A stretch of DNA of 209 bases from Escherichia coli (lineage in GTDB: Bacteria > Pseudomonadota > Gammaproteobacteria > Enterobacterales > Enterobacteriaceae), in assembly GCF_003334315.1 (NCBI RefSeq), contig NZ_QOWR01000144.1; one strand, given 5' to 3'. The translations under genes were made by a program, and so were the position numbers. Within the stretch, counting starts at the first letter, position 1. Each line of letters opens with the position of its first letter. Positions 1 through 209 of the stretch are shown one piece after another. The notes under the pieces are model-generated. The model worked only from the letters and a program-made list of their open reading frames with translations. It ran no database searches and was not told the origin of the DNA.

Positions 1-209
1 AATGGCAGTCACGCATCCAGTTAATAAAGCACTCGTGAAATTTTGCAGGACTGATACAGGATACAACTCTGGCAATGATATCGTGAACAGGAATACCATT
101 TTCAAAATCACCATATCACTTCAAAACATCGGGATGTGTTTCCCCAAAATCCTCTATATCTTCCCAACCTTCTGCACCAGAAATAACGGCACAAATAGTC
201 AACAGTAGA
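1..209 (-). pseudogene. ISAs1-family transposase (H-repeat-associated protein family), internal N-terminal-region fragment, interrupted by an in-frame TGA; partial at both window edges
   Basis: Seen in sequence: minus-strand translation in the frame of + coordinates 2..208 gives [30 protein letters not shown] (+ 119..208), then TGA (+ 116..118), then [38 protein letters not shown] (+ 2..115). Established knowledge, recalled from memory and not searched: E. coli H-repeat-associated proteins such as YhhI carry an N-terminal stretch of roughly ...[69 protein letters not shown].... That leaves only about 3 substitutions plus the stop over 68 codons. No start or natural stop of the gene lies in the window. 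Confidence 0.72.
1..209 (-). mobile_element. Internal fragment of an ISAs1-family insertion sequence (H-repeat element); element ends and inverted repeats lie outside the window
   Basis: Inference from the transposase homology above. ISAs1-family elements are about 1.2-1.4 kb with a single transposase ORF, so a 209-bp window inside the ORF cannot show the termini. The 40% GC (84 of 209 bases) fits a horizontally acquired element if the host is an enterobacterium, but the host is unknown. Confidence 0.6.
116..118 (-). other. In-frame premature stop codon (TGA) within the transposase reading frame
   Basis: Seen in sequence: + strand 116..118 is tca, which reads TGA on the minus strand, in the same frame as the conserved peptide on both sides. 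From memory, intact homologues have a sense codon here (Gln, or possibly Arg; a CGA to TGA change would be a single transition). Confidence 0.7.

Follow-up and report, generated by a model that had tools for sequence, protein, structure and literature searches.

Results

The yhhI locus and the structure of the H-repeat

The window analysed in the present study is a stretch of 209 nucleotides from Escherichia coli, and its minus strand carries a transposase reading frame at positions 1-208, with 68 protein letters around one in-frame stop. Positions 2-208 (minus strand) were assigned to codons 30-98 of yhhI, encoding an ISAs1-family (H-repeat) transposase, using the translation, the family model NF033564, the identity to annotated yhhI and the Pfam domains. 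NF033564, the curated NCBIfam model of ISAs1-family transposases, gave a score of 84.2 bits against a cut-off of 70 with the 69 window residues alone. In the conceptual full-length product, in which the stop was replaced with Gln, PF13808 (DDE_Tnp_1_assoc) was matched at residues 8-94 (E=7e-32) and PF01609 (DDE_Tnp_1, the catalytic domain) at residues 102-343 (E=5e-30), downstream of the window, and codons 30-98 fall within the N-terminal DDE_Tnp_1_assoc domain. Using Megablast, the window was matched in 5,214 of the 5,426 complete E. coli genomes, at 23,640 places and with a median of 5 per genome; the 44 matches listed at 100% identity, from many strains, were all annotated as yhhI.

The gene order in strains ATCC 8739 and E2865 was nikR - rhsB - yhhH - (HEAT-repeat pseudogene) - yhhI - yhhJ, the same as that in K-12 MG1655, and PGAP labels yhhI in both strains as a pseudogene with an 'internal stop'. 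Because the RhsB-yhhH-yhhI-yhhJ locus is orthologous and its flanks are identical to those of K-12, the window is an allele of yhhI itself, the RhsB-linked H-repeat transposase gene, and not the diverged paralogue proposed in the original prediction. A silent marker at codon 43 (GGT; position 167, minus strand) also assigns the window to the yhhI locus, as copies at that locus have T at this base, whereas those sampled at the ydcC locus with the same haplotype have C. A dead copy of yhhI is already known and has been flagged as a pseudogene across hundreds of RefSeq genomes. Other damaged genes were observed in the same neighbourhood: the pseudogene between yhhH and the H-repeat, which is yrhC in K-12, is interrupted by an internal stop, is annotated as a 'HEAT repeat domain-containing protein' and occupies positions 5424-5774 of the ATCC 8739 locus (L001) and 7888-8133 of the K-12 locus (L003), and rhsB carries a frameshift in both E2865 (L002) and strain L73 (L009).

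The yhhI gene of the window allele is a full-length frame of 378 codons with one in-frame stop, within an H-repeat of approximately 1,291 bp, the paralogous loci ceasing to align at positions 5771 and 7061 of L001. The element ends, CAGGGAAAGAT and CAGGGCAAGAT, are 11-bp terminal inverted repeats that agree with each other at 10 of 11 positions and do not differ from those of K-12, and neither a frameshift nor a truncation was found at the yhhI locus in the alignment with K-12; the additional frameshifts, truncation and loss of inverted repeats for which a search had been suggested are thus absent from this locus. At the junctions, which read ...CAACGGC before the element and AATACAGG... after it, no direct repeat was apparent on inspection by eye only. 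The family model, the two-domain architecture and a size in the range of ~1.2-1.4 kb with short inverted repeats all agree with the ISAs1 family; the uninterrupted transposase frame of an autonomous element is missing because of the TGA at codon 60, and the element is a defective ISAs1-family (H-repeat/ISEc1-like) member, a pseudogene. In work on the Rhs elements, descriptions of H-repeats, defective ones included, go back to the early 1990s. A literature search on ISAs1 H-repeat transposases returned nothing, and a search on ISEc1 as an ISAs1 element returned incidental mentions only.

Several other features were read in the window. The first in-frame ATG past the stop is that of Met94 (positions 14-16, minus strand), which opens a predicted 285-codon ORF holding the whole DDE domain. 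An antisense ATG ORF of 68 codons (positions 2-208, plus strand) was rejected as a gene and judged to be a chance ORF, as antisense ORFs of 52-79 codons recur along the element and the sole protein-family match of the window lies on the opposite strand. An Rfam search of the window yielded no family match (best E=4.6), and a promoter scan of the window revealed no promoter-like site. A weak terminator-like hairpin of 6 pairs (3 G-C) followed by TGTTTTG, found at positions 147-129 (minus strand) within the coding frame, is a consensus match only; its 3' arm takes in the CCC of Pro55.

Differences between the window allele and K-12 YhhI

A base-by-base alignment over 1.9 kb was made with K-12 MG1655 as the reference and ATCC 8739 as a carrier of the window allele. 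Over this length there were 25 substitutions and no indels, with 22 substitutions in the coding sequence, five of them inside the window; both frames measure 1,137 nt, and the coding sequences are 98.1% identical. The original prediction had quoted two differences from the YhhI-type protein, THPDVLK versus THLDFLK and HDIIARVV versus HDTIARVV, and the strings proved correct. The substitutions in the window change four codons (minus strand). Codon 55 (positions 131-133) is CCC instead of CTC (L55P), a normal variation that is also present in intact ydcC and ybfD. Codon 57 (positions 125-127) is GTT instead of TTT (F57V), with Phe in all intact copies and Val seen only with the TGA. Codon 60 (positions 116-118) is TGA instead of CAA (Q60stop, two base changes), which is the sole disabling lesion of the allele and the 'internal stop' of the PGAP label; the earlier reading of the copy as inactivated by a nonsense codon is supported. 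Codon 73 (positions 77-79), in the invariant HDTIAR motif, is ATC instead of ACC (T73I) and is tied to the TGA on three haplotype backgrounds. Outside the window, the replacements are I140L, L162M, D190N, T198N and I225M. A full-length transposase cannot come from a copy with Pro55, Val57 and TGA60 (the P-V-TGA haplotype), in which the stop lies within the DDE_Tnp_1_assoc domain.

All five changes in the window are replacements, whereas 5 of the 17 in the remaining gene are replacements and 12 are silent (Fisher one-sided P=0.0096). Four changes lie within 16 bp, a clustering that is only weakly unusual (P=0.04 for the whole gene and P=0.13 within the diverged patch described below). Over the entire gene, 10 replacement and 12 silent changes separate the window allele from K-12 yhhI, and 10 and 11, respectively, separate yhhI from ydcC in K-12, where both ORFs are intact. 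Relaxed constraint across the whole gene is therefore unsupported, and the evidence for it is local, because the gene-wide ratio is no higher than that between intact copies; constraint seems to be similarly weak on all E. coli H-repeats.

The K-12 reference (L003 8379-9515) is itself unusual. Its Thr198 stands against Asn in 61 of 61 full-length family representatives and in the window allele, and its Ile140 stands against Leu in 53 of the 61, so that at codons 140 and 198 the departure from the family consensus is that of K-12 and the window allele is closer to the consensus. The reference copy of yhhI in K-12 may itself be functionally compromised, judging from these residues, and K-12 YhhI, which departs from the family at conserved sites (T198, I140), is ill suited as a standard against which to measure decay.

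Distribution of the haplotypes

The haplotypes were counted in the 5,426 complete genomes using 39-mer diagnostics spanning codons 55-60, with spacers between them; the longest shared word was 27 bases, and no seed of 28 bases remains when any variable base differs. These diagnostics score exact haplotypes only, and copies with an extra nearby mismatch are missed. Of the 5,426 genomes, 1,053 carry the exact P-V-TGA haplotype, which occupies 1,249 places; it lies at yhhI, at ydcC or, in some genomes, at both loci. Val57 was never observed without the TGA, as 14 alternative haplotypes (P-V with CAA, CAG, CGA, AGA, GGA, TAA, TCA, TTA, TGC, TGG, TGT or TAG, and L-V with CAA or TGA) gave 0 matches among copies otherwise identical over the 39 bp. 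The P-F-CAA haplotype, on the other hand, was common, with 2,953 places, or roughly 2,600 after the subtraction of up to ~370 stop-bearing places. Pro55 together with Phe57, Gln60 and Thr73 is the state of the intact 378-codon ydcC in K-12 and CP53, and Pro55 is also present in ybfD; it is an ordinary, older family polymorphism common to intact copies. Using a 39-mer centred on codon 73, Ile73 was found at 1,562 places in 1,366 genomes, which is no excess over the stop-bearing copies (1,249 plus up to 370). Among sequenced examples, Ile73 was present in 8 of 8 copies with the TGA, and Thr73 was present in every copy that lacks the TGA, among them the L73 allele with TAA; the link between Ile73 and the stop rests on these counts and on the eight sequenced stop-bearing copies.

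The family comparison comprised 120 cluster representatives, 61 of them full length, down to 66% identity. Among the 61, position 57 is Phe in 54, Trp in 5 and Leu in 2, and position 73, inside the invariant HDTIAR motif, is Thr in 60; Val57 and Ile73 were found in 0 of the 61. Position 60 in relatives is Gln, Leu, Glu, Gly or Lys, and the stop is therefore derived. Val57 and Ile73 are thus replacements at strongly conserved positions that are found only in dead copies, a pattern that fits change after inactivation. The only cluster representative with Pro55 (THPDFLKQ...HDTI) was P0010 (ENA, 462 aa), a fused or extended protein that also has a PF01863 match.

These results divide the differences that had been read together as decay. 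For Val57 and Ile73, the reading is upheld, as Val57 occurs only with the TGA, Ile73 shows no excess over the stop-bearing copies and both sites are nearly invariant. For Pro55 it fails, since Pro55 is normal in intact ydcC and thus represents the normal state in a well-populated group with intact copies, which the original prediction had itself named as the mark of lineage variation.

Relationship to known H-repeats

The closest counterpart is yhhI of K-12 (b3484; RhsB-linked H-rptB, ISAs1-like ISEc1), which resembles the window allele in chromosomal position and element ends. The 678 bp upstream and the 437 bp downstream of a diverged patch are identical in the two, and 22 substitutions lie in the central patch of 740 bp; the K-12 frame is open, whereas that of the window allele is closed. 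The ydcC-locus (RhsE-linked) pseudogenes of O157:H7, O55:H7, O103, E. coli W and others share Pro55, Val57, TGA60 and Ile73 and differ from the window allele by one silent base (codon 43) in the window region, although they lie at another locus, beside pptA and with an IS1 fragment upstream. This 99-bp fragment of an IS1 transposase gene lies immediately before the RhsE-linked H-repeat in CV261 (L004 4442-4540), in 600468 and CEC12044 (L005/L006 4429-4527) and in CP53 (L012 1923-2021). Unlike the window allele at yhhI, several ydcC-locus carriers have gained additional changes: a 9-bp in-frame insertion (...AEQQNKRKSQKMT...) in CV261 (L004 4915-6060), a +1 frameshift near codon 285 in 600468 (L005 4915-6052), and V70F and other replacements in CEC12044. 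The intact ydcC (b1460) of K-12 and CP53, annotated as 'ISAs1-like element ISEc5 family transposase', shares with the window allele Pro55 and most of the 3' states (N198, M225 and silent sites at codons 292-301), but differs in having Phe57, Gln60, Thr73 and an open frame of 378 codons; in CP53, this intact ydcC is kept beside a dead yhhI. A third relative, the T6SS-linked H-repeat remnant beside yafV in B2 strains (UTI89, S88 and NC101), has TGA60 and Ile73 as in the window but L-F or P-F at codons 55/57; it is 92-94% identical and, with a 314-bp deletion and a frameshift, far more decayed than the window allele. In strain L73, yhhI (L009 3849-4985) carries a separate and recent single-step change of CAA to TAA at codon 60, in an allele that is 99.9% identical to that of K-12.

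TGA60 with Ile73 is therefore present on three codon-55/57 backgrounds (L-F, P-F and P-V) and at three kinds of locus, namely RhsB-linked yhhI, RhsE-linked ydcC (L004-L006, from position 4915) and the T6SS-linked remnant (L007 and L008, 3849-4672). The L-F and P-F backgrounds with TGA60 and Ile73 account for ~357 further genomes, and the two sequenced examples (UTI89 and NC101) are the T6SS-linked remnant. All 22 coding differences between ATCC 8739 and K-12 yhhI lie in the 740-bp patch (L001 6078-6817, L003 8542-9281), and the 1,115 bp flanking it contain none (P=1e-9). In CV261 (L004), ydcC is a mosaic whose 5' region is of the window type and whose centre is of the K-12 type. K-12 and ATCC 8739 share an orthologous yhhI insertion, the junctions of which are identical.

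Discussion

In the present study, the window was found to be an interior segment of yhhI, in a nonsense allele that is widespread, and we consider it very probable that this allele is a dead relic haplotype that has spread by gene conversion and recombination. As the change from CAA to TGA takes two substitutions, an independent recurrence of TGA60 is unlikely, and a single origin followed by spread would be the most economical reading of the haplotypes. We propose that the stop had a single origin in one H-repeat lineage, with T73I or just before it, and that F57V might have been added later, on a Pro55 background that was already dead, as the nesting of the haplotypes suggests. The dead haplotype would then have passed among RhsB-, RhsE- and T6SS-linked H-repeats, and likewise between strains, by gene conversion and homologous recombination, transposition probably not being the route. 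The orthologous insertion with identical junctions, the diverged patch of 740 bp and the mosaic in CV261 favour such an exchange over transposition. The occurrence of both Leu and Pro at codon 55 on stop and non-stop backgrounds requires either recombination within 14 bp or recurrent mutation. The copy would now be a fixed relic, whose sole remaining role may be to provide homology for recombination. As the transposition of H-rpt elements has never been observed (PMC3032704), the contrast with a recently active element that the original prediction had drawn is moot.

The substitutions might instead be regarded as the lineage variation of an intact and active subfamily, with the stop as an accident of one strain or a sequencing error. 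Pro55, which is normal in intact ydcC and ybfD, behaves in this manner, and the window allele is nearer than K-12 YhhI to the family consensus at codons 140 and 198. However, 1,053 complete genomes, each assembled independently, carry the same TGA at a total of 1,249 places, no other codon 60 accompanied Val57 among the 14 alternatives sought in 5,426 genomes, and both Val57 and Ile73 are absent from the 61 full-length family representatives. Lineage variation is therefore ruled out for Val57, Ile73 and the stop and holds only for Pro55, and as an account of all four differences it is scarcely credible. A different way of sparing the gene would be a recoded TGA, by selenocysteine insertion or programmed read-through, giving a functional full-length transposase. 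In favour of recoding, the allele is common, otherwise full length and intact at its ends, and a hairpin of -17.1 kcal/mol is predicted in the RNA that follows the TGA. This fold, however, is no different from that of shuffled sequence (z=-1.67; 10 of 200 shuffles were as good), and the region has no Rfam match (best E=4.6). Relatives have ordinary residues (Q, L, E, G or K) at position 60, the stop is accompanied by replacements at nearly invariant residues, and copies elsewhere with this TGA have acquired a 9-bp insertion, a 314-bp deletion or frameshifts, as a dead gene would. We therefore give recoding virtually no chance.

It might also be argued that the split gene is kept for a useful fragment, either the N-terminal peptide of 59 residues or the DDE-only protein of 285 residues starting at Met94, which would regulate or inhibit the intact H-repeat transposases in the cell. 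Inhibition of transposition by shortened forms of the transposase is known from IS1, IS911 and Tn5, and the haplotype is common and occupies several loci; moreover, the 285-codon ORF with the whole DDE domain is intact in the yhhI-locus copies, and genomes with a dead yhhI can retain an intact ydcC. However, the 59-residue piece stops midway through the N-terminal domain of 87 residues, and the downstream ORF has been lost in other carriers through a frameshift or deletion. In addition, there is no known H-repeat transposition to inhibit (PMC3032704), and a regulatory fragment seems highly improbable to us. The dead allele, at a frequency of ~20-25% and at three kinds of locus, could have some retained use. 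We hold it to be a long shot that TGA60 with Ile73, which about one complete E. coli genome in four carries, has been retained for a fragment acting on intact transposases, or that it belongs to a dead element moved in trans via its intact ends; if either were true, the allele would be more than a passive relic.

On the preferred reading, that of a dead haplotype spread by conversion and recombination, the overall significance of the finding is small, as the copy is an insertion-sequence pseudogene of an ordinary kind. The combination of Pro55, Val57, TGA60 and Ile73 could be used as a simple lineage marker, as could the silent base in codon 43. Moreover, the presence of the nonsense haplotype at different Rhs and T6SS loci would be an example of gene conversion homogenising dispersed repeats in E. 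coli, dead alleles included.
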